17,717 nt of DNA, from UHGV virus genome UHGV-0179344, one strand, 5' to 3'. The DNA comes from a virus. The notes beneath the pieces are model-generated. The model was given only the letters and a program-made list of their open reading frames with translations, was not told the DNA's origin and did no database searches. Every line of letters begins with the position of its first letter. The stretch's first letter is position 1. A program made the translations under genes and the position numbers. Shown here one piece after another: positions 2,772-17,717 of the stretch.

Positions 2772-3232
2772 GCCTCAGGCCACTCCCTGTTCAATGCCAG
2801 GTCAATAATGTCCTGGTTAACCACGAAATAAGGGAATTCTGCCCAGCCAGGAGGAAGAAGCGGTCTTTCCCACAATTCCAGGGTCGCTGAGAATCGCCAG
2901 TAAATTGGCGCCACGAGAACAGGCCCATCGTAAATATCGGTGAACCGGCACTTGTAGCTCTCAACCCCGCGCGGCGTCTGAAGACGCATAAGAAACCATG
3001 CTGCACCATCAGAAATTGTTTCCCGATACCATGCTTCAAAAAGCTGAGCCTGCCCATCTGTCGTGAACATCCAGGTCACAGTGGCTTGGGTTGGTGTCGA
3101 GGTGTACTGCCTGCGCTGCCTGGCTCGCCCCGAAGTCAGTTGAGTGCGAAGTAATGGACTTACTGGTTTAAAACCATATCCGTCCTGCAATGGCAGCGGC
3201 AGATATTCATGGGGGTAACTCGCCATTGCCAT
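2768..3232 (-). CDS. Minor tail / distal tail protein (M-like by position)
   Basis: 154-aa ORF starting 2 nt after the tape measure stop; call is positional only. Confidence 0.5.
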   Translation of the reverse strand: MAMASYPHEYLPLPLQDGYGFKPVSPLLRTQLTSGRARQRRQYTSTPTQATVTWMFTTDGQAQLFEAWYRETISDGAAWFLMRLQTPRGVESYKCRFTDIYDGPVLVAPIYWRFSATLELWERPLLPPGWAEFPYFVVNQDIIDLALNREWPEA

Positions 3233-3233
3233 A

Positions 3234-6200
3234 TTAGGTCATCCTGTTTCCGCGACCCTGAGCCGCCCTGAGTGATTTACCGAACTGGCCTTTGCCTTCC
3301 AGAGTCTGATTACTAAGCTCGTTCACGAGTTGTTTGTTATTCAGCTTCAGCACTGCATCCATCTCCTGCTGAGTCATACCAGGGCTTTGCGGCATGTTGA
3401 TAATCTGGCTGATGTGGTTTGTTTGTGAACTGCCACCTGAAGAGGACTCATTCTTGCTACCCGTCCCGAAACCTGGCTTTGACAATGTGGCATCCAGCCC
3501 ACCATTGCGAATAGCCTCAAGGTTAGAGACTCCAATGCGCTTGGTTGCCGCAGCGTCAAAGACGTATTCCTGCCCATGCACAACGCCAGAGATAGACCGC
3601 GTCGCCCCATTCCCGGTGTAGCCGCCGGACTGAAACCCAACAGCCGCAGCGCTGGTAATGCTCGAGGTTATAGTGGACATAAGCCCCACAACCTGAGCAA
3701 TGGCAGCAAGGTTTGCCGGAAACGGAAGCCCGGCCAGCGCCTGCCCCATCGCCATCGGCAACTGCAGGGCTGCCTGCGCCAGCGCGAACGCTTTCTGAGT
3801 GATGAACGCCGCTTTGTACATCGCTGACTGTTCGCCAAACATCGTCCCCATAGAATCAGTGATGCTGGAGAACGAGTTTTGCGCGGACTGAGCCTGAGCA
3901 GCGTAAACAGCCATACTCATAGCCTCCTGATTCTGGTTGCCCTGCTGGCGAAGCGCGTCCAGTTGTTGCTGCTTCTTCTGCTCATTCAGGACGCTATTCA
4001 TCGTTATCGCTTTTTCCTGATCACTCAGCCATTTGGCATAATCGCCCTGAGCAGTTTTCAGCTTTTCAATAATCTCCAGTTGCGGGTCAATTTGCAGGCC
4101 GATCATGTTCATGCCCTGACCTGACAAATCATTGTTTGTTGCGCCAGATTTCAACGTCCCACCAGCGGCATTAACACCGGATATTACAGAATCAGGCAGC
4201 ACCGATTTGCTAATCAGGTCGCTCGCTTGTTGCCCTGCGGCTTCCGGCGAAAGCTGTTTAAGCGTCACCATTTTTTGTAGAATCTCCAGGCGTTTCTGGA
4301 GTGTCTCGTTTTGCCTGATCTCTTTCGGTGCGATGTCCTCCTGCATTTTCCGGTAGTCGTCGAGCGTCTTCACCTGCCCCTGCAACGCCTCCTGATTTTT
4401 ATATGCCTGCAGAATTTCTTCAGAACGGGAGAGAATAGACTTCTGGTCGGCGGTTAGTTGCGCCTTAGACTTGAGGTCTGCAATCTGCTGCTCGAACTTA
4501 ACTCTCGCCTGTGTTGCGCTGTTAAGCTTGTCACTGGCATCCAGTTGGGACTGCATGGCTGCAGTCTGCTGATTTATCTGATCAAGTAACCGGGTTGCAG
4601 CATCCTCTGTATAGGCTTTCCCCTTGGGCGCCTTGGGTGTTTTCGGGTCTTTGTAGCGGTCATTTATTTCAGAATATATTCTGTCATATTCTTCTTGAGT
4701 ATATTTCCCGCGATACTTGGATAGCTCAGCCAACTCTTTAGCACGTTGCTGCTGCCGTGTCTGATATTTCTGAGAAAAGGCATCAGCCTTCTGCTGTAGT
4801 TTTATCCCTTCCTGCTGTTTTTTAAGGTATGGGTCATAGGATTCATTAATGGCGTCCTGAGCCATTTTCTCGGACTGCAATGAAGCTAGTCGCGCTTTAG
4901 CAGCATCGACCGCCTTTTGAAGCATGGAAAGGTCGCTAGACTTCCATGCGCCATATGGCCCAGCATATTTTGATTGTCCGGCACTTAAATCAGAGAGTGA
5001 CTTTTGCGCCCTACCCAGTTCGTCCTGAGCTTCTGCTATTTTTTGATCTATAGATTTTTCACGACCTATATCTAGCATGGCATCCCAGGCACCTTTCGCG
5101 GCATCACCCAACCATTTCCATGCCTGCTCCAGTGAGCCTAGGTTACCCTGAATCTGGTCAGCACGCTGCTTCATAGTCGCAGCATACGTATCTGTCGCCA
5201 GTCTCGCAGCCTCTTGCTGATTACCCTCGTCCTGCAACGCCTTAATCTGGTTGTAGGTTGCTAGAGTCAGGAAGTGATATTTGTCGTTCAGTTCTCCGAT
5301 AGCCGCTACCGGGTTTTGTGCGATTTTCTCGAAGTCTGCCACCATGCTATCGACAGATTTATCGGTCGCATCGTTCATTGCGACAACGGCCTCCGTGACA
5401 GTCTGCATTGAACCTGTAGCGATTTTACCACCAGAAACAACACGGTTTAGTGCCTGAGCGGCGGCGGCTGTGGTATTCCCTGTGTTATCTGCGACAGATT
5501 TCGCCATGTCTGCCAATTGCCCGGTGGTTACCCCGGCAATATTCCCGGTCAGAACAAGGGACTTATTGAACTCCTGTTGCTCCTGGCTGCCTTTGTACCA
5601 GGCATATGTGAGAGTACCCACAACTGCGACAAGAGCGCCGATCCCGATAGTCATGGGATTGAGAAAGCCAGTGAGTTTTTTGGCATTCTCAGCATTTTCA
5701 GACAATGAGTTAGCGTTATCTGACAGAGAATCACTGGATTCATCGGCGGCATCTCCGGCTCCCAGTATCTGCTGTTTTATGATTTCGAAAAGATTACCCC
5801 AACCGCCAAAAGAATCGGCGATCTGCGAACCCTGCTGCATGAAGATAGTGAACAAAGGCATACCGCCAGCCAGGCCAACAGCAATATCATTCAGTTGCGC
5901 GGGGAGTAACCGCATGGCATTTTTATACTGACCTGCCGAGATAGCACCATACCGCATTTCATTGCTGACCTGATTGAGACCTTTCTCCGTCAAATCCAGC
6001 TTATTTGAAAGCTCTGCGTGGTATTCAGGAGACAGGAGTCCAGCATCCCTAGCAGCCGATAATGTCGCGCGCTGGCTTTTCAGCCTTTCCAGGGCTGCGC
6101 CAAGAGGGTCTAATTGCGAGCGTATTTGAGAGAAACTAGCCTGGAGTTTTTCATTCTCTCCAGTGAGACCACTAACCCTGTTTCTGGCATCATCAATTTT

Positions 6201-6503
6201 GGCTGCGTAATCTTCAAAACTATCAGCATCTAAGAGGCCTTTAGATTTTGCCCGAGAAAGCTCCTGCTGTTGTTTGTCTAATTTGTTGAGGGCTGCGTTG
6301 ACTGGGTCTATGCTGTCAAGCAAATCCTGAAGCGCTGACTTTTCCTCCTGAGTAGCTTTTGTCACCCTCCCTGCGCTTGCGGCTGCCTTTTGCCCCCACT
6401 CTGTTAAGCCATGAAGAGCACTGGACAAACTGCTGGCATTTTTTTCCGCGCCTGTACTGTCAATGATTATCGCAAGGCGTGATGTTTGTTCAGGCATTAC
6501 CAT
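3234..6503 (-). CDS. Tail tape measure protein
   Basis: 1089 aa, Ala/Gln/Leu/Lys-rich helical sequence with hydrophobic segments (MTIGIGALVAVVGTLTYAWY, FALAQAALQLPMAMGQALAGLPFPANLAAIAQVVGL) and a Gly-rich C-terminus; lies between the chaperone genes and the tail-tip genes. GGAGA precedes the second ATG (6497), which may be the true start. Confidence 0.85.
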   Translation of the reverse strand: MVMPEQTSRLAIIIDSTGAEKNASSLSSALHGLTEWGQKAAASAGRVTKATQEEKSALQDLLDSIDPVNAALNKLDKQQQELSRAKSKGLLDADSFEDYAAKIDDARNRVSGLTGENEKLQASFSQIRSQLDPLGAALERLKSQRATLSAARDAGLLSPEYHAELSNKLDLTEKGLNQVSNEMRYGAISAGQYKNAMRLLPAQLNDIAVGLAGGMPLFTIFMQQGSQIADSFGGWGNLFEIIKQQILGAGDAADESSDSLSDNANSLSENAENAKKLTGFLNPMTIGIGALVAVVGTLTYAWYKGSQEQQEFNKSLVLTGNIAGVTTGQLADMAKSVADNTGNTTAAAAQALNRVVSGGKIATGSMQTVTEAVVAMNDATDKSVDSMVADFEKIAQNPVAAIGELNDKYHFLTLATYNQIKALQDEGNQQEAARLATDTYAATMKQRADQIQGNLGSLEQAWKWLGDAAKGAWDAMLDIGREKSIDQKIAEAQDELGRAQKSLSDLSAGQSKYAGPYGAWKSSDLSMLQKAVDAAKARLASLQSEKMAQDAINESYDPYLKKQQEGIKLQQKADAFSQKYQTRQQQRAKELAELSKYRGKYTQEEYDRIYSEINDRYKDPKTPKAPKGKAYTEDAATRLLDQINQQTAAMQSQLDASDKLNSATQARVKFEQQIADLKSKAQLTADQKSILSRSEEILQAYKNQEALQGQVKTLDDYRKMQEDIAPKEIRQNETLQKRLEILQKMVTLKQLSPEAAGQQASDLISKSVLPDSVISGVNAAGGTLKSGATNNDLSGQGMNMIGLQIDPQLEIIEKLKTAQGDYAKWLSDQEKAITMNSVLNEQKKQQQLDALRQQGNQNQEAMSMAVYAAQAQSAQNSFSSITDSMGTMFGEQSAMYKAAFITQKAFALAQAALQLPMAMGQALAGLPFPANLAAIAQVVGLMSTITSSITSAAAVGFQSGGYTGNGATRSISGVVHGQEYVFDAAATKRIGVSNLEAIRNGGLDATLSKPGFGTGSKNESSSGGSSQTNHISQIINMPQSPGMTQQEMDAVLKLNNKQLVNELSNQTLEGKGQFGKSLRAAQGRGNRMT

Positions 6504-6514
6504 TCTCCGGACAT

Positions 6515-6543
6515 GAAAAAACCCGCCGTAGCGGGTTTTGTTT
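6515..6543 (-). terminator. Intrinsic terminator after the small secreted-protein gene (symmetric, potentially bidirectional)
   Basis: Plus strand aaaaaa-CCCGC-cgta-GCGGG-ttttgttt: a 5-bp GC stem with tetraloop flanked by A-run and T-run; on the minus strand it directly follows the TAA of 6542..6826 and precedes the tape measure RBS. Confidence 0.5.
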
Positions 6544-6826
6544 ATTGGCGAGACTTTTTATCTCTCTCGTGCTCTGAGGCTATGTAATCATAGGTGATTT
6601 TAGCATTGCGGCATTGCTTAGATGTATCCCCGTCAATAAGGCACTCTCCGTGATATCTGGAGATATTTGATGACATGCTAATAGCAGATATGAAAATAGA
6701 CTCGCACCTTTTGTCGCCATTGCACGCCTGGACCCTCATGCTATCCAGAAGTTGAACTTCCTCAATTTGTGCAAAAGAATAACCACATGAAAAAGATAGG
6801 ACCAAACCCAAAATTATTTTTTTCAC
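6542..6826 (-). CDS. Small secreted (periplasmic) cysteine-rich protein, moron gene; function unknown
   Basis: From GTG 6826: MKKIILGLVLSFSCGYSFA followed by QIEE, a classical Sec signal peptide with an AXA-like cleavage site and no lipobox; mature part about 75 aa with 4 Cys. ATG 6847 is an alternative start (gives 101 aa). Local GC is about 40% against about 55% for flanking phage genes. Confidence 0.5.
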   Translation of the reverse strand: MKKIILGLVLSFSCGYSFAQIEEVQLLDSMRVQACNGDKRCESIFISAISMSSNISRYHGECLIDGDTSKQCRNAKITYDYIASEHERDKKSRQ

Positions 6827-6856
6827 TCCACACCCCATCAGTAACATTTACCAACA

Positions 6857-6883
6857 TCGTATCAGGTGCTGATCCCGAATCAA
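6857..6883 (-). promoter_or_regulatory. Candidate sigma70 promoter for the secreted-protein gene
   Basis: On the minus strand TTGATT, 16 nt, TACGAT, ending a few nt upstream of the candidate starts. Weak match, by eye only. Confidence 0.2.
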
Positions 6884-6943
6884 CCTAACGGGGGTGAAAA
6901 TTGCGCTTAGTTGCGGGTAGACCGCCGAAGCGGGCCACGCTTG

Positions 6944-7498
6944 TTATTCAGGTAGAGCTTTGCCAAACCCGGGAAGCCTTATCTGCCCTTGCTGTTCAAT
7001 GCGCTCGATGCGAGCAAGCAGCTCGGGCTTTTTAACTCTGCCCCAGCGATTAAGCAGGCGACCTGACATGCTGGCCACGTCTTTCTCTTTCATGAACTCC
7101 AGCATGACGGCGTTTCGCTCCTCCTCAAACTGGCGCTGACCAATCTGAAGCATTGCGTACATCCAGTTGAAAGCGTTGATGTAAGCAATCTTGATCCGCA
7201 TGGCTTCTTTCTTGGTATAAGACATCACAAGAAGCATTAATCCATCCTTGCGGAGACGGTAGAACTTCTGCGGCTTACCATTCTGTAACTCATTGTTTTT
7301 ATAGCAAAGCTCAAAATTGAGCTTTGTATCAAACTCTGGAGGGCAAGCATCAATAGTCCTTTCAATATCGCGGACTACGTTTTTCGATAACTTGCCAAAT
7401 GCTTTTGCCACCATAAAAGAATCGGTAACCGGATCGTTGTTTGCTACAAAAATCAGATCGCGGAAATCGATGCCGTTAACGACTGTTGGGTAGTTCAT
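6944..7498 (-). CDS. Rha-family phage regulatory protein (N-terminal Rha domain, uncharacterised C-terminal region)
   Basis: The 287-aa track ORF has a junk Arg/Ser/Pro-rich N-terminal 103 aa that overlaps the upstream gene and terminator. From Met104 (ATG 7498, AAGG 8 nt upstream) the sequence VANNDPVTDSFMVAKAFGKLSKNVVRDIERTI ... RKDGLMLLVMSYTKKEAMRIKIAYINAFN matches my memory of the Rha-family N-terminal domain. Low GC (about 35-45%). Confidence 0.65.
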   Translation of the reverse strand: MNYPTVVNGIDFRDLIFVANNDPVTDSFMVAKAFGKLSKNVVRDIERTIDACPPEFDTKLNFELCYKNNELQNGKPQKFYRLRKDGLMLLVMSYTKKEAMRIKIAYINAFNWMYAMLQIGQRQFEEERNAVMLEFMKEKDVASMSGRLLNRWGRVKKPELLARIERIEQQGQIRLPGFGKALPE

Positions 7499-7650
7499 AG
7501 CGTGTACCTTACTTTGAGATGAACCTTTGCCGCATAGGAGATCAGCCCGTCGAGGCTCGCCAGCACTAACTGACATCCTCAAAGGCTCATTCCAAAGGGT
7601 TGGGTTCGACGTGGTTGGATGCGCTGCGGTGCGCGGTGAAATTCGGATAC

Positions 7651-7676
7651 AAAAAAGCCCCGGCGATTGCCGAGGC
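7651..7676 (-). terminator. Intrinsic terminator immediately after the GT chaperone stop
   Basis: Minus-strand RNA GCCUCGGC-AAUC-GCCGGGGC followed by UUUUUU, an 8-bp stem with one G-U pair. The pairing works only for the minus-strand transcript, matching the gene orientation. Confidence 0.5.
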
Positions 7677-8443
7677 TTATTTCTTCTTGCGGTCCTGCTC
7701 CTGCTTTTTGGCCCACTCATCGCGCCATGCGTCATCAAGTGCGAATATCGCAGCTTCAAACTCATCGCGATCGAGCTGTATGGGCCGAACAGACAGGTAT
7801 TGCTCAATGTCTCTTATGCCAAGGGGAAGCGGCGATCCCGTCATGCCTGCGTATGCCCTGGATCGGGAAATGATGGCGTATGCGCTTAGTATCTCGCCCG
7901 TTACGCCGTCTATCTCAGGCTCAGGAACGGGAGGCAACTTTAAACGCTCTCTCTTCCAGCGCTCCTTCTCTCCCTGCTCGCCGCCGTACTGGTTCAGCCA
8001 GGCTTGTGCTTCTGTGACTTTTTTACGGTTTCTTTCTTCTGCTCCGCCTTCCCTTCGGCAATCTCTGCTGCCGCTCCGAGGATTTGCCAGTAAAGCTCCG
8101 GGCGCTGCTTAAGAAGGGCCGCCCCTTTCTCTGGCGTATAGTCGATGGCTAATTCTTTACCATCTACCAGCTCGCCTACACCTTCCCAGCCTTTCAGCAG
8201 GTAATGAGCGCAGTTTTCGATAAGCAGGTCGTCAACTGAGTCGATATCGCCTACAGCAGACAGGTTGAAATCTTTCGTGCCGACCTTGTAGGTGGCATCG
8301 AGCTTTTCAATATGGCGACGTACGAGAGCGTTACGGGAGCGGTAGTGATGATTGTCCACACTGCCTACCTTCAGGCGCAGGCCTTCAATAGGCTCAATCC
8401 AGCGCTCACTGTTCAGGTCGATACGGGGTGCGATAATAATCAT
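7677..8443 (-). CDS. Tail assembly chaperone GT-like fusion made by programmed -1 frameshift (about 256 aa)
   Basis: ORF 7677..7937 is in the -1 frame relative to 7994..8443 and stays open upstream across the slippery site; the track start at 7937 is a TTG, so it has no convincing initiation codon of its own. Confidence 0.45.
7994..8443 (-). CDS. Tail assembly chaperone (lambda G-like)
   Basis: 149-aa acidic protein between the major tail and tape measure genes; the slippery heptamer lies 7 codons before its stop and a -1 frame ORF continues downstream. Confidence 0.6.
   Translation of the reverse strand: MIIIAPRIDLNSERWIEPIEGLRLKVGSVDNHHYRSRNALVRRHIEKLDATYKVGTKDFNLSAVGDIDSVDDLLIENCAHYLLKGWEGVGELVDGKELAIDYTPEKGAALLKQRPELYWQILGAAAEIAEGKAEQKKETVKKSQKHKPG
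8019..8025 (-). other. Programmed -1 ribosomal frameshift slippery heptamer A-AAA-AAG
   Basis: Minus-strand GTA AAA AAG in the G frame (plus-strand cttttttac); A AAA AAG is a well-known efficient -1 slip site in enterobacteria. Confidence 0.45.
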
Positions 8444-8458
8444 TGGATCCTCTGCATG

Positions 8459-8493
8459 AAAAAGCCCGACCCACCATGCAGCGCAGGCCGGGA
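8459..8493 (-). terminator. Possible partial terminator or stabilising stem-loop after the major tail protein gene
   Basis: Minus RNA CCCGGCC, 14-nt loop, GGUCGGG, then CUUUUU, between the major tail stop and the G start. The large loop makes it weak. Confidence 0.25.
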
Positions 8494-8501
8494 AAAGTAA
8501 G

Positions 8502-9674
8502 TTAAGGTGCGGTAACGGTGATTGCGGTTGTGGCGGTATAGGTCCGCGCTTTCGCAGTGATGATTGCTGACCCTTCAGCGACGCGGGTAACCTGCGCCGT
8601 CTTCTGGCCGGTTGAGGCGACCGTTGCCACTGCCGGATCTGATGACGACCATTGCACCGTGTCAGTAGCGCCTGTTGGCGTCAGATTTGCAGTCAGCGTT
8701 ACGGTGGAACCTTCTGCGCCAGAAGAGGTTGCCGGAGTGACTGAGATCGCCGTAGATGGCACCGTAACTGCACGAGTGATGGTTGGCGGAACGTCAGCAC
8801 CGGTAATGTTCAGCTCAACCTGTACGATGTCGGTGTTGCCGCCGTCAGGCCAGTCGCCATCAACCTGAACAGACGGCAGATTAAACGTATAGCTACCCTC
8901 ATCGTTTTCGAGGGTGAAGCTAAACGGCATCGTCTCGCCGGTCATGGTTTTACGCCAGGCGTTATAGGCCTCTTTCGACCAGGACAGCGTAATACTGCCA
9001 GACGGCGTGAACGTAGTCGGGATGTTTGCGCCTGCAAACGGGTTGCCCGTCCCGATACAGCGCTGGGTTTGCAGGTTGTTGTCAAACTGGATGTTGAAAG
9101 AATCGACACAGAAGCCGTCGCCGCCATCAATGCCATTCAGGTTGATGTTCGTCACCTGCTTGAACGAGTAACGCATCTCCCCGGCGTTATCGACAGGGTT
9201 GGTGAAGAAGCTCGTGTCTTCCGCGTTACCATCCCATCCAAGCCCAGCAAAGGTGACGGTCGCTTCAATGTCGCCGTCGTTTGGTACTTCAATCTGGAAC
9301 ACGCCAACCTGAGCGCCGCGGGCGATTGATGCGACACCGATATCGTCAGCGTATGACGCTACAGAGAAGGTGATACGCTGATTCCCCATCGTCAGGACGT
9401 TGTTGACCCACTCGGAACCAAAACACGAAGCGAGAAAGTCATCATGCTGCCCCCAACGGAACTTGGTTACCACGTCACCGCCTACATCGGTAGTGCCGGG
9501 GCTGCGGCCTTGCGCCATTCGGGTGCCGCCAATTTCGTCGTTGTCGATCATGTTTTGGGTTGGACCAAGGCCAAATGAACTGCGCTTCAGCAGATTCCAC
9601 GCGCCTGTGGTCGGCGTGATGCCGGGGGTAGTTTCACGGATATACGCCGTGACGTTCTTTGCGCCTGAGCTCAC
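8502..9674 (-). CDS. Major tail (tube) protein with C-terminal Ig-like domain
   Basis: 390 aa; AAGGAGG 6 nt upstream of GTG 9674; the C-terminal ~100 aa is Thr/Ser/Ala/Val-rich beta-type sequence (TVTLTANLTPTGATDTVQWSSSDPAVATVASTGQ) typical of Big_2-like Ig domains on tail tube proteins. Confidence 0.75.
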   Translation of the reverse strand: MSSGAKNVTAYIRETTPGITPTTGAWNLLKRSSFGLGPTQNMIDNDEIGGTRMAQGRSPGTTDVGGDVVTKFRWGQHDDFLASCFGSEWVNNVLTMGNQRITFSVASYADDIGVASIARGAQVGVFQIEVPNDGDIEATVTFAGLGWDGNAEDTSFFTNPVDNAGEMRYSFKQVTNINLNGIDGGDGFCVDSFNIQFDNNLQTQRCIGTGNPFAGANIPTTFTPSGSITLSWSKEAYNAWRKTMTGETMPFSFTLENDEGSYTFNLPSVQVDGDWPDGGNTDIVQVELNITGADVPPTITRAVTVPSTAISVTPATSSGAEGSTVTLTANLTPTGATDTVQWSSSDPAVATVASTGQKTAQVTRVAEGSAIITAKARTYTATTAITVTAP

Positions 9675-9699
9675 TTGAGCCTCCTTAAAGGTAAGCGCC

Positions 9700-10092
9700 C
9701 TATACGGCGCGGTACGGAATTTGAATATTCATTTGTGCCCACCCGTCAGCCTCTCCTGCATCAACAGCGCTTACGGCGAAATAATCTAGCCGACCGTCTG
9801 TTTTGAACTCGAAAAGTTCACGCAGCTTGTCAGCCGTTCTGGTGATGAGCAGAGAGCCCGATCCTGCTGGCACGAAGATTTGGATGATGAGCACTCCAGT
9901 ACGGTGCACTACCGGCCCGTTGCCTATCTCATTAGCTCCAGCAAGGCCGGGAATGTTAGTCAGCCGCGCCCAGATGCTTTTACCAGTAGGGTCATAGGTC
10001 TTGTCGTTGGGGTATCGCACATCACCAGAGGCAATAGCCGTCTGCGCCGTCATGCGTGTGATGACGGCGTTTCTGATTTCTTCGAGGGTCAT
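9700..10092 (-). CDS. Tail terminator / tail completion protein (U-like by position)
   Basis: 130-aa ORF immediately upstream of the major tail gene, coupled to the preceding gene by an ATGA overlap. Confidence 0.45.
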   Translation of the reverse strand: MTLEEIRNAVITRMTAQTAIASGDVRYPNDKTYDPTGKSIWARLTNIPGLAGANEIGNGPVVHRTGVLIIQIFVPAGSGSLLITRTADKLRELFEFKTDGRLDYFAVSAVDAGEADGWAQMNIQIPYRAV

Positions 10093-16016: not shown

Positions 16017-17113
16017 TTATCTTCTGAATGTAACAGGTGCCGACTTCAGCACGTCCCGTTTTTTCTGCGTTACTGCAAAGTATCTGAATCCGTCAGATCC
16101 GTGCGATGTCCAGTCGTGAAGTGGCTTGTCTTTCCAGCACCCTCGCTTGTCATCCCACTCCTTGCGATAGCTCTCCAGGGCGTTAAGTCCTTCTTCGCAT
16201 TTCACGTCATCAAAGGCGCATCGCGGGAGGATTTCACGCACCTGCTCGATACCGTCGTCAACGCCAAGCTTTGGCACCACCTGGAAGGTGATCCCATATC
16301 TGGTGCCGTCAATTTCGTAGCCTTCACGCGCCAGCTCTCGCCGGGTCTTGGCATCAGAACCGAACTCGCGGTTGTCAATATCGTGCGGCCCCCAGTGAGC
16401 GGCATAGGTATAGCCTTTATCCTTCAGCACCTTCATGTAATGGCGCAGGCCCTCACCGCTGTTCTCGTAGTAGTCGATGACGTGATACTCCTCGCCAACG
16501 ATGCGAACGAACCAGATAGCGGTGGAGTCGCTGACCCCGATATCCCAGAAGGTGTGGACAGGGAGGTGAGAGTTATCAGGAAGAGCACCAATGCGCTTCT
16601 GCTCGTAGAGCTTGCGGAACTGCTTAGCGTAGTAGGCACCTTCAACCGACTGCTGGAATGCTTCCGCTGGGATTGACGGATACTCCCGCTTCATGTCATC
16701 GCCGAGCGTTTTCTCTTTGGCGTAATACCAGGCCCGCTGACGCTCGTTAAGCACAATGCCGTACTTCGCCTCAAGCTCAGCGAAATAATCGCTCAGCCGC
16801 TGCGGTAGAGCCTCTACGGGGTCAATTGCATACAGGGCATTCTTCCACCAACTGAAAAAGAAGAATTTCCAGTCTAGAGATGAGAGCAACTTGCCCTGAA
16901 GTTGTGCTTTCTCAGCCGACTGACAGTAATCGAAGAAGTAACCAGCCCGGCCTTCCGCAGTGCTTTCAATCGTCGTGAAACAGTCGCTTGATACTGCCTC
17001 AAAAGCACCAGTGACAATCTCTCGGGCCTTGTCGGGAAACTTGGCGCAGATCTTCCCGAACTCGGAAACGTGCAGGTAGCGCAGCGTACCGCCACGGAAA
17101 GATGTGCTGATAT
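16017..17113 (-). pseudogene. Terminase large subunit, 5'-truncated by IS insertion (ATPase N-terminus missing, nuclease domain present)
   Basis: Track ORF 16017..17195 contains FWDIGVSDSTAIWF and WGPHDID, terminase nuclease-type acidic motifs, but its first ~27 codons lie inside the IS terminal repeat region. There is no Walker A and no plausible start downstream of the junction. Confidence 0.6.

Positions 17114-17717
<604 letters not shown>

Follow-up and report, generated by a model that had tools for sequence, protein, structure and literature searches.

A portable rha cassette among the tail genes of a prophage and its conserved, predicted double-pseudoknotted RNA leader

The rha genes of the lambdoid phages phi80 and P22 both follow the Rz spanin genes, in the stretch that separates the lysis cassette from the terminase, and the phi80 record annotates its gene with 'DNA synthesis inhibition in IHF- hosts'. 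The moron concept, for accessory phage genes, reportedly goes back to work by Juhala and colleagues in 2000 on the lambdoid phages HK97 and HK022. Processed structured RNAs, namely the c4 RNA of P1 and P7, the CI RNA of P4 and IsrK of Gifsy-1, form leaders of Bro-network genes and carry two short complementarity boxes. Passages in PMC4936722 describe the phi80 and P22 rha genes as non-essential, late-expressed accessory genes of lambdoid phages, place rha in the late operon (citing Mozola & Friedman 1985 and Henthorn & Friedman 1995), and report that either gene, when de-regulated, blocks phage DNA synthesis and growth in hosts lacking IHF. Some other Rha-domain proteins adjoin cI in Eru-type Stx phages (PMC8951638), and a shuffling 'Bro network' of phage accessory domains has been described (PMC10111431).

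We analysed the virus genome UHGV-0179344, a stretch of 17,717 nt referred to here as the window, whose minus strand carries a siphovirus-type prophage late operon. All window features given below lie on this minus strand, where the genes were arranged in the order terminase large subunit (split by an IS3-family element), portal and head morphogenesis, scaffold and major capsid, connector genes, tail tube, gpG, gpT-like extension, rha, a small ORF, tape measure and distal tail genes. Upstream of rha, we identified the gene of a tail tube protein with an Ig-like domain (8502-9674) and, as the upstream neighbour of the insertion described below, a gpG-like tail assembly chaperone gene (7994-8443), which matched PHROG 313 'tail assembly chaperone' at E=9e-35; the gpG homologues of related contigs contain PF27119 (Phage_YdaY). 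Close to where the chaperone gene ends, a slippery heptamer (A AAA AAG, 8026-8020) was read directly from the sequence, and the open -1 frame runs on to 7677, forming a gpT-like extension (7677-8026, stop codon 7679-7677) that matched PHROG 1189 at E=4e-33 for 7677-7937. The heptamer would be the expected gpG/gpGT programmed frameshift site, and frameshifting is predicted here. The downstream neighbour is the tape measure protein gene (3234-6503), which matched Pfam TMP_2 (E=1e-59), TMP_4 and PHROG 24 (E=4e-214). A first-pass annotation, made from the letters alone, had placed a Rha-family gene between tail genes, and this placement held, with the tube and gpG/gpT genes upstream and the small ORF and tape measure gene downstream. 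An identical Rha protein, in an unchanged gene order, was encoded by five metagenome contigs.

The IS3-family transposase gene orfB (17122-17717) runs off the right end of the window and was inserted in the terminase large-subunit gene (16017-17195). With the intact terminase gene of a Mixta prophage (L014), homology begins only about 130 codons in. The prophage therefore probably cannot package its DNA, and since it is seemingly defective, its rha cassette may not be under current selection in this window.

The rha gene (6944-7498) encodes a protein of 184 aa, with an N-terminal Phage_pRha alpha/beta domain followed by a C-terminal ORF11CD3 alpha-helical hairpin. The assignment to the Rha family was confirmed by profile searches, all of them well past their thresholds: Pfam Phage_pRha (PF09669) matched residues 25-113 (E=2e-21, 76.8 bits against a cut-off of 29.9), TIGR02681 phage_pRha scored 84.4 bits against a cut-off of 45.95, and PHROG 518 'Rha-like' matched at E=7e-80. 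The C-terminal region, which the first-pass annotation could not assign, turned out to be Pfam ORF11CD3 (PF10549), matched at residues 125-176 over profile positions 3-54 of 54 (E=6e-22, 78 bits against a cut-off of 25). ANT/KilAC and P22_AR domains were absent from Rha in the Pfam search, which found only Phage_pRha and ORF11CD3. We then modelled the protein with AlphaFold2 (pLDDT 80), and the model showed an alpha/beta N-terminal domain and, as the structure of the C-terminal part, a long antiparallel alpha-helical hairpin (helices 97-142 and 146-170). Foldseek with this model returned no match in the PDB at E<=0.001, the structure searches giving only generic helical-hairpin matches, and a sequence search of the PDB gave nothing under E=0.38. 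PADLOC reported no defence-system match for Rha or for the small ORF.

Compared with an 87%-identical E. coli homologue, the differing codons were 57 synonymous and 12 non-synonymous, and 62 of the 80 base differences fell at third positions, a pattern that argues for a coding gene under purifying selection; pseudogene decay of rha was rejected on the same codon counts. Together with the profile matches, these mostly synonymous differences speak against a gene lacking a Rha domain and against a non-coding ORF. The start had been proposed at ATG 7498, with the N-terminal extension of the ORF regarded as an artefact, and both proposals agree with our data: homologues align from residue 1, and the extension crosses the terminator at 7655-7678 and the non-coding structured leader. 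Stop codons were present in the same frame upstream of the ATG in 20 of 25 leaders, these being the leaders with aligned sequence ending at the ATG, the window's own included. The low-GC signature ascribed to the gene was also found, at 46.1% for rha against 52-57% in the head and tail genes and 54.0% in the whole window. Window Rha was 49% identical to P22 Rha over 179 aa (E=3e-57, full length), with the same two-domain architecture, and only 34% identical to phi80 Rha over 158 aa (E=1e-25). This full-length homology marks the window gene, as judged from the alignments, as a genuine homologue of phi80 and P22 rha.

The window's rha resembles those of phi80 and P22 in belonging to the same Pfam/TIGRFAM family, in its upstream terminator, in a structured leader that ends at the ATG and in its late-operon setting, but theirs lie between the Rz spanin and terminase genes, whereas the window's lies between gpGT and the tape measure gene, a slot that is unusual for rha. 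Among 173 homologous cassettes in an IMG/VR sample, the upstream gene encoded an Rz spanin in about 70%, a myovirus-type tube protein in about 6% and a Q antiterminator in about 5%, and a gpT-like upstream gene, as in the window, was found in 0 of 173. Relatives at 84-93% identity were located between the lysis cassette and the terminase of E. coli prophages and P22-like phages, while relatives at 84-87% identity lay in myovirus-type prophages of Klebsiella and Raoultella, with the gene of a tube-like virion protein on one side and those of the tail chaperone and tape measure on the other. One metagenome-assembled genome carried rha before the tape measure gene of a third tail-module type. The lysis-terminase slot was also common to the siphoviruses phi80 and ES18 and to P22-like podoviruses, which have no tape measure protein. 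The premise that Rha genes normally occupy early or regulatory regions thus failed for this subfamily, with phi80 and P22 rha in the late operon and about 70% of the 173 cassettes after Rz, and stood for some Rha-domain proteins next to cI; the neighbourhood comparison placed most relatives in the late operon, between lysis and terminase genes, and not in the early region. The Rha proteins of the Eru-type Stx phages (PMC8951638) share the Phage_pRha winged-helix-type domain with window Rha and differ from it in their early-region position and their other partner domains (Ash).

Comparison with a sister contig, L032, showed that rha belongs to an inserted cassette of 760 bp (6917-7676), which comprises terminator, leader, rha and a 3' hairpin and is missing from that contig. 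Window 8541-7677 aligned to L032 223-1088 and window 6915-6441 to L032 1089-1563, L032 1088 and 1089 being contiguous, and the gene order of L032 was gpG, gpT, small ORF (89% identical) and tape measure, with no rha. The cassette starts right after the gpT stop codon, with the junctions TAA/GCCTCGG... and ...GGTCTACC/CGCAAC, and no target duplication was visible at its edges. When the stretch 3000-9700 was searched, only 7685-6944 was shared with E. coli prophages, at 87% identity. Because the sister contig lacks exactly 760 bp, the gene is a clean cassette insertion, and rha reached the gpGT/tape measure junction as a discrete unit. If L032-type genomes lost the cassette by deletion, the direction of the event is reversed and the cassette nature is unchanged.

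The 5' edge of the cassette is formed by an intrinsic terminator (7655-7678) directly after the gpT stop, which was found in a terminator scan and consists of 10 pairs (7 G-C) followed by a T-run; the homologous hairpin upstream of rha is annotated as a terminator in ES18 and phi80. At the other end, after the rha stop, a short hairpin CCGC-UUCG-GCGG without a T-run was read from the sequence (6917-6943). In other contexts the homologous position has a GGCCCAC-UACG-GUGGGC-type hairpin, which in L001 comes with a T-run. A second terminator-like hairpin with a T-run (6513-6539, GCGGG then TTTTTT) lies in the gap between the small ORF and the tape measure gene.

We also compared the contents of the gpGT/tape measure junction in related tail modules, and found nothing, a secreted 117-aa protein, a lipoprotein with a membrane protein, or a lipoprotein with the small ORF; the junctions lie at window 6504-7676, L021 6819-7347, L022 6828-7812, L023 6759-6921 and L033 5519-6495. 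The chaperone/tape measure junction thus behaves as a cargo hot spot in this tail module. The small ORF of the window (6542-6847) has a GC content of 40.8% and encodes 94-101 aa, probably 94 aa from GTG 6826, with a Sec-type signal peptide (MKKIILGLVLSFSCGYSFAQ). It had no match in any family library searched, and a tblastn search against the phage collection also gave no match. Eleven homologues were found, those with a source name coming from Klebsiella; the ones traced to contigs L032, L033 and L034 lay directly upstream of the tape measure gene, with gpT upstream in L032 and L033. The small ORF is an older resident of the junction, separate from the rha cassette. A promoter-like sequence ahead of it, TTGATT-16-TACGAT (6883-6856), was weak (8 of 12) and was not relied on. 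The window therefore offers a base-resolved example of a portable late-operon cassette at a hot-spot junction. Taken alone, rha among tail genes is further mosaic prophage cargo and changes little, and the rha finding is real and largely ordinary, a known accessory family in an uncommon position.

From the terminator to the ATG of rha there are 156 nt, which were 84-91% identical to the regions upstream of rha in P22, ES18 and other phages, and which contain a structured RNA leader of about 140 nt (7499-7637) that scored 168 bits with a covariance model. Two diverged leader sequence types, when folded independently, gave the same shape, a hairpin H1 followed by an interrupted hairpin of about 86 nt. 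RNAalifold on a plain MAFFT alignment, in which the two types were out of register, had recovered only a minor part of the basal stem, and single-sequence folding with realignment to a covariance model built from nine sequences was used instead. In the window, H1 (7634-7621) has the loop ACCGCA (7630-7625) and is followed by a linker with the box CGUCGA (7611-7606); the long hairpin (7597-7512) carries the apical-loop box UCGACG (7553-7548) and the 3' bulge UGCGG (7534-7530), and ends just before the Shine-Dalgarno sequence AAGG (7510-7507). In an alignment of 26 leaders, 95.8% of cells were paired and double changes occurred in 31 of 40 pairs, counts that are biased towards structure for the nested helices, which had been fitted by the covariance model, the two pseudoknots described next lying outside it. 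When the partners were slid by 1-3 columns as a control, pairing fell to 33-45%.

The first pseudoknot joins the H1 loop to the bulge on the 3' side of the long hairpin (7629-7625 with 7534-7530). Contiguous runs of 4-6 Watson-Crick pairs were present in 26 of 26 sequences, while cross-pairing between sequences averaged 2.9, and none of 20000 permutations matched the observed mean; within the 26-sequence alignment this helix was 96.9% paired and all five pairs covaried. Its variants included CCGCA/UGCGG, UCGCA/UGCGA, UCUCAC/GUGAGA, UCGUAC/GUACGA, CCGAAU/AUUCGG, UGCCC/GGGCA and CGCUC/GAGCG. The second joins the linker to the apical loop, on its 3' side (7611-7606 with 7553-7548); no permutation out of 5000 reached the observed mean, and the variants included CGUCGA/UCGACG, CCACCGA/UCGGUGG, CCCGAG/CUCGGG, CGAGAG/CUCUCG, CACAGAA/UUCUGUG and CGCAGAG/CUCUGUG. 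The covarying box variants thus numbered at least eight for the loop/bulge pairing and at least seven for the linker/apical-loop pairing. Matching the H1 loop against the linker, which served as a negative control, showed no signal (mean run 2.7 against 2.7, p=0.31). Since G-U pairs are present, the fold is a feature of the RNA of this strand and not of the DNA. Taken together, these results describe the leader as a hairpin system with two pseudoknots, supported by covariation, and with a conserved fold. A search with the leader alone (166-176 nt) found no Rfam family even at E<=10, the C4 and isrK models included, so that membership of those families was not found; weak Rfam hits at 7637-7770 were rejected as terminator noise.

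We further studied the distribution of the leader. With the covariance model, it ended at the start codon at every rha homologue locus examined, including the relatives at 47-60% protein identity and phi80, and copies ending at the ATG scored 168 bits in the window, 163 in ES18, 159 in P22 and 69 in phi80. The same leader was found upstream of unrelated genes, namely KilA-N in the Stx2 phage 1717 and, immediately downstream of Q, an HNH/homing endonuclease gene in RothC and CharmingMan. In IMG/VR, two pattern scans gave at least 120 matches each, and when 100 IMG/VR loci were checked with the covariance model, 96 matches were obtained, several loci carrying two copies. Among the IMG/VR matches listed, the distance from bulge to ATG was 30-32 nt in 190 of 241, and the downstream genes were mostly Rha (in three architectures), the remainder, again among the matches listed, being KilA-N, P22_AR_N+ORF11CD3, HNH_3, T5orf172/MUG113 and NUMOD1. 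Judged by these neighbours, the leader appears to serve 'Bro network' genes plus homing-endonuclease-type genes, and it is widespread, with hundreds of phages carrying it.

Second leader copies before another gene were observed at L031 45238-45354, L026 4616-4741 and L030 3801-3933, and also in L061, L077, L078, L052, L059, L069 and L155; examples are the copies before PHI80_66 of phi80 and before a TerB-like gene in CharmingMan. The boxes of the two copies differed in at least one pairing in five of the six genomes compared: in the loop/bulge box in RothC, CharmingMan, L077 and L078, additionally in the linker/apical-loop box in L077, and in the latter only in L155. In L061 the two copies had the same boxes. 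Shorter leaders (L059 3119-3238, L069 7809-7925 and L155 8512-8625) were without the small apical hairpin and kept both box pairings, which suggests a minimal core of the motif.

The deposited starts of P22 rha (L028 1588-2193) and phi80 rha (L031 43739-44293) fall inside the conserved leader. Both the covariance model and the alignments of the proteins put the true start codons at L028 1657 (P22) and L031 43775 (phi80), and would in this way correct the annotation of both genes.

A fragment of the leader had been reported before. P22F is an 89-nt small RNA that was detected in P22 infection and listed with 'no known function' (PMC13397905, 2026). We found that its sequence is the long hairpin of the P22 leader copy, and that its 3' end falls 6 nt short of the rha start codon; its sequence identity to the window copy is about 86%. 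P22F accumulates in lytic P22 infection and its ends look processed. The account in PMC13397905 is one of detection only, from which structure, conservation and pseudoknots are absent. What is new here is the conserved double-pseudoknotted leader, of which only the P22F fragment was previously reported, without structure or function.

We favour, with somewhat better than even confidence, the reading that the window carries an accessory rha of the phi80/P22 type, inserted as a 760-bp cassette, made late, controlled by its leader and encoding a probable DNA-binding regulator that is not part of the tail. A sigma-70-consensus promoter scan of the minus strand from 6300 to 8100 returned no promoter-like site, a weak or factor-dependent promoter being beyond the reach of the scan. 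Because no sigma-70 promoter was found, the cassette opens with a terminator and the relatives are late genes, rha is most likely transcribed only within the antiterminated late transcript; two terminators ahead of the tape measure gene would be tolerable only with processive antitermination. The leader, whose compact fold ends a few bases before the Shine-Dalgarno sequence, probably sets the translation, processing or stability of rha. The protein would be a two-domain member of the 'Bro network', in which the N-terminal Rha domain is predicted to be winged-helix-like and DNA-binding and the C-terminal helical hairpin may mediate self-association or partner binding, and its probable role, late in infection, is that of a regulator that binds DNA.

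The cassette could also be a classical moron with its own promoter, expressed from the repressed prophage, whose Rha works on behalf of the lysogen; it might, for instance, be an antirepressor or a regulator by which other phages are sensed or blocked, or co-resident prophages triggered. Like morons, it is extra DNA between two late genes that are adjacent in L032, with terminators on both sides and a deviant, lower GC content. Many databases label the homologues 'anti-repressor', ORF11CD3 is also found fused to the N-domain of the P22 antirepressor, and crosstalk between prophages through trans-acting antirepressors is well established (PMC3121763). We nevertheless consider this reading unlikely, as the sigma-70 scan found nothing promoter-like from the terminator to the ATG, what is conserved in the leader is an RNA structure and not promoter boxes, the founding rha genes belong to the late operon, and Rha has neither an ANT/KilAC domain nor a PADLOC match. 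Unlike morons, the cassette showed no promoter of its own in that scan, has late-expressed relatives and seems to behave as a portable late-operon slot, not as a lysogen-expressed unit.

The box sequences raise a further possibility, in which the RNA and not the protein is the key product: a processed hairpin of the P22F type would act in trans on the boxes of other leader copies, giving type-specific control of, or immunity over, Bro-network and homing-endonuclease genes. Two short boxes complementary to the internal loop and the apical loop, with their at least eight and at least seven covarying variants, would suit such an RNA, as would the stable 89-nt hairpin species seen in P22 infection and the difference in box sequences between copies in five of six genomes; P4 is a known case of immunity RNAs that lie within Bro-network genes (PMC10111431). 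The leader architecture, with a processed RNA and two boxes, also recalls c4, CI and IsrK (see also PMC10111431), but it has no Rfam match, C4 and isrK included, its setting is the late operon and not an immunity region, and its fold is larger, with two pseudoknots. The target boxes, moreover, lie upstream of the hairpin in the same molecule and not at the ribosome-binding site, near which a second pair of target boxes in the style of P1 c4 was sought by eye and none was found. Folding in cis accounts equally well for all the covariation, which cannot separate it from intermolecular pairing, and the detection of P22F rests on one small-RNA sequencing study. On balance, a trans-acting RNA as the key product seems quite improbable.

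A role in tail assembly, such as tuning the gpG/gpGT ratio or tape measure expression, might be expected from the position, since in three or more unrelated tail modules the cassette has a chaperone or tape measure gene next to it, and since it puts two terminators before the tape measure gene, yet we regard it as very improbable, given that L032 has the same tail genes without the cassette, most homologues lie between lysis and terminase genes, including in podoviruses without a tape measure protein, and Rha carries domains of a DNA-binding type. Because the sister phage lacks rha and most homologues lie outside tail modules, Rha is not expected to be a tail component.

Returning to the reading of rha as a late, leader-controlled accessory gene, the leader may have a wider meaning than the position of the gene. 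The chances are about even, in our view, that it represents a class of structured phage RNA not described before and works as a portable control element, be it as a switch of translation or processing or, after the fashion of c4/CI, as a type-specific RNA acting in trans. The genes it controls would be the late-operon accessory genes Rha, KilA-N, P22_AR_N, HNH, T5orf172 and NUMOD1 of lambdoid phages, P22, phi80, ES18 and Stx phages among them. Its presence in the model phages P22, phi80 and ES18 makes its role directly testable with existing genetics. If this is true, the leader could be the missing piece behind the need to hold rha expression down, as seen in the IHF phenotype.
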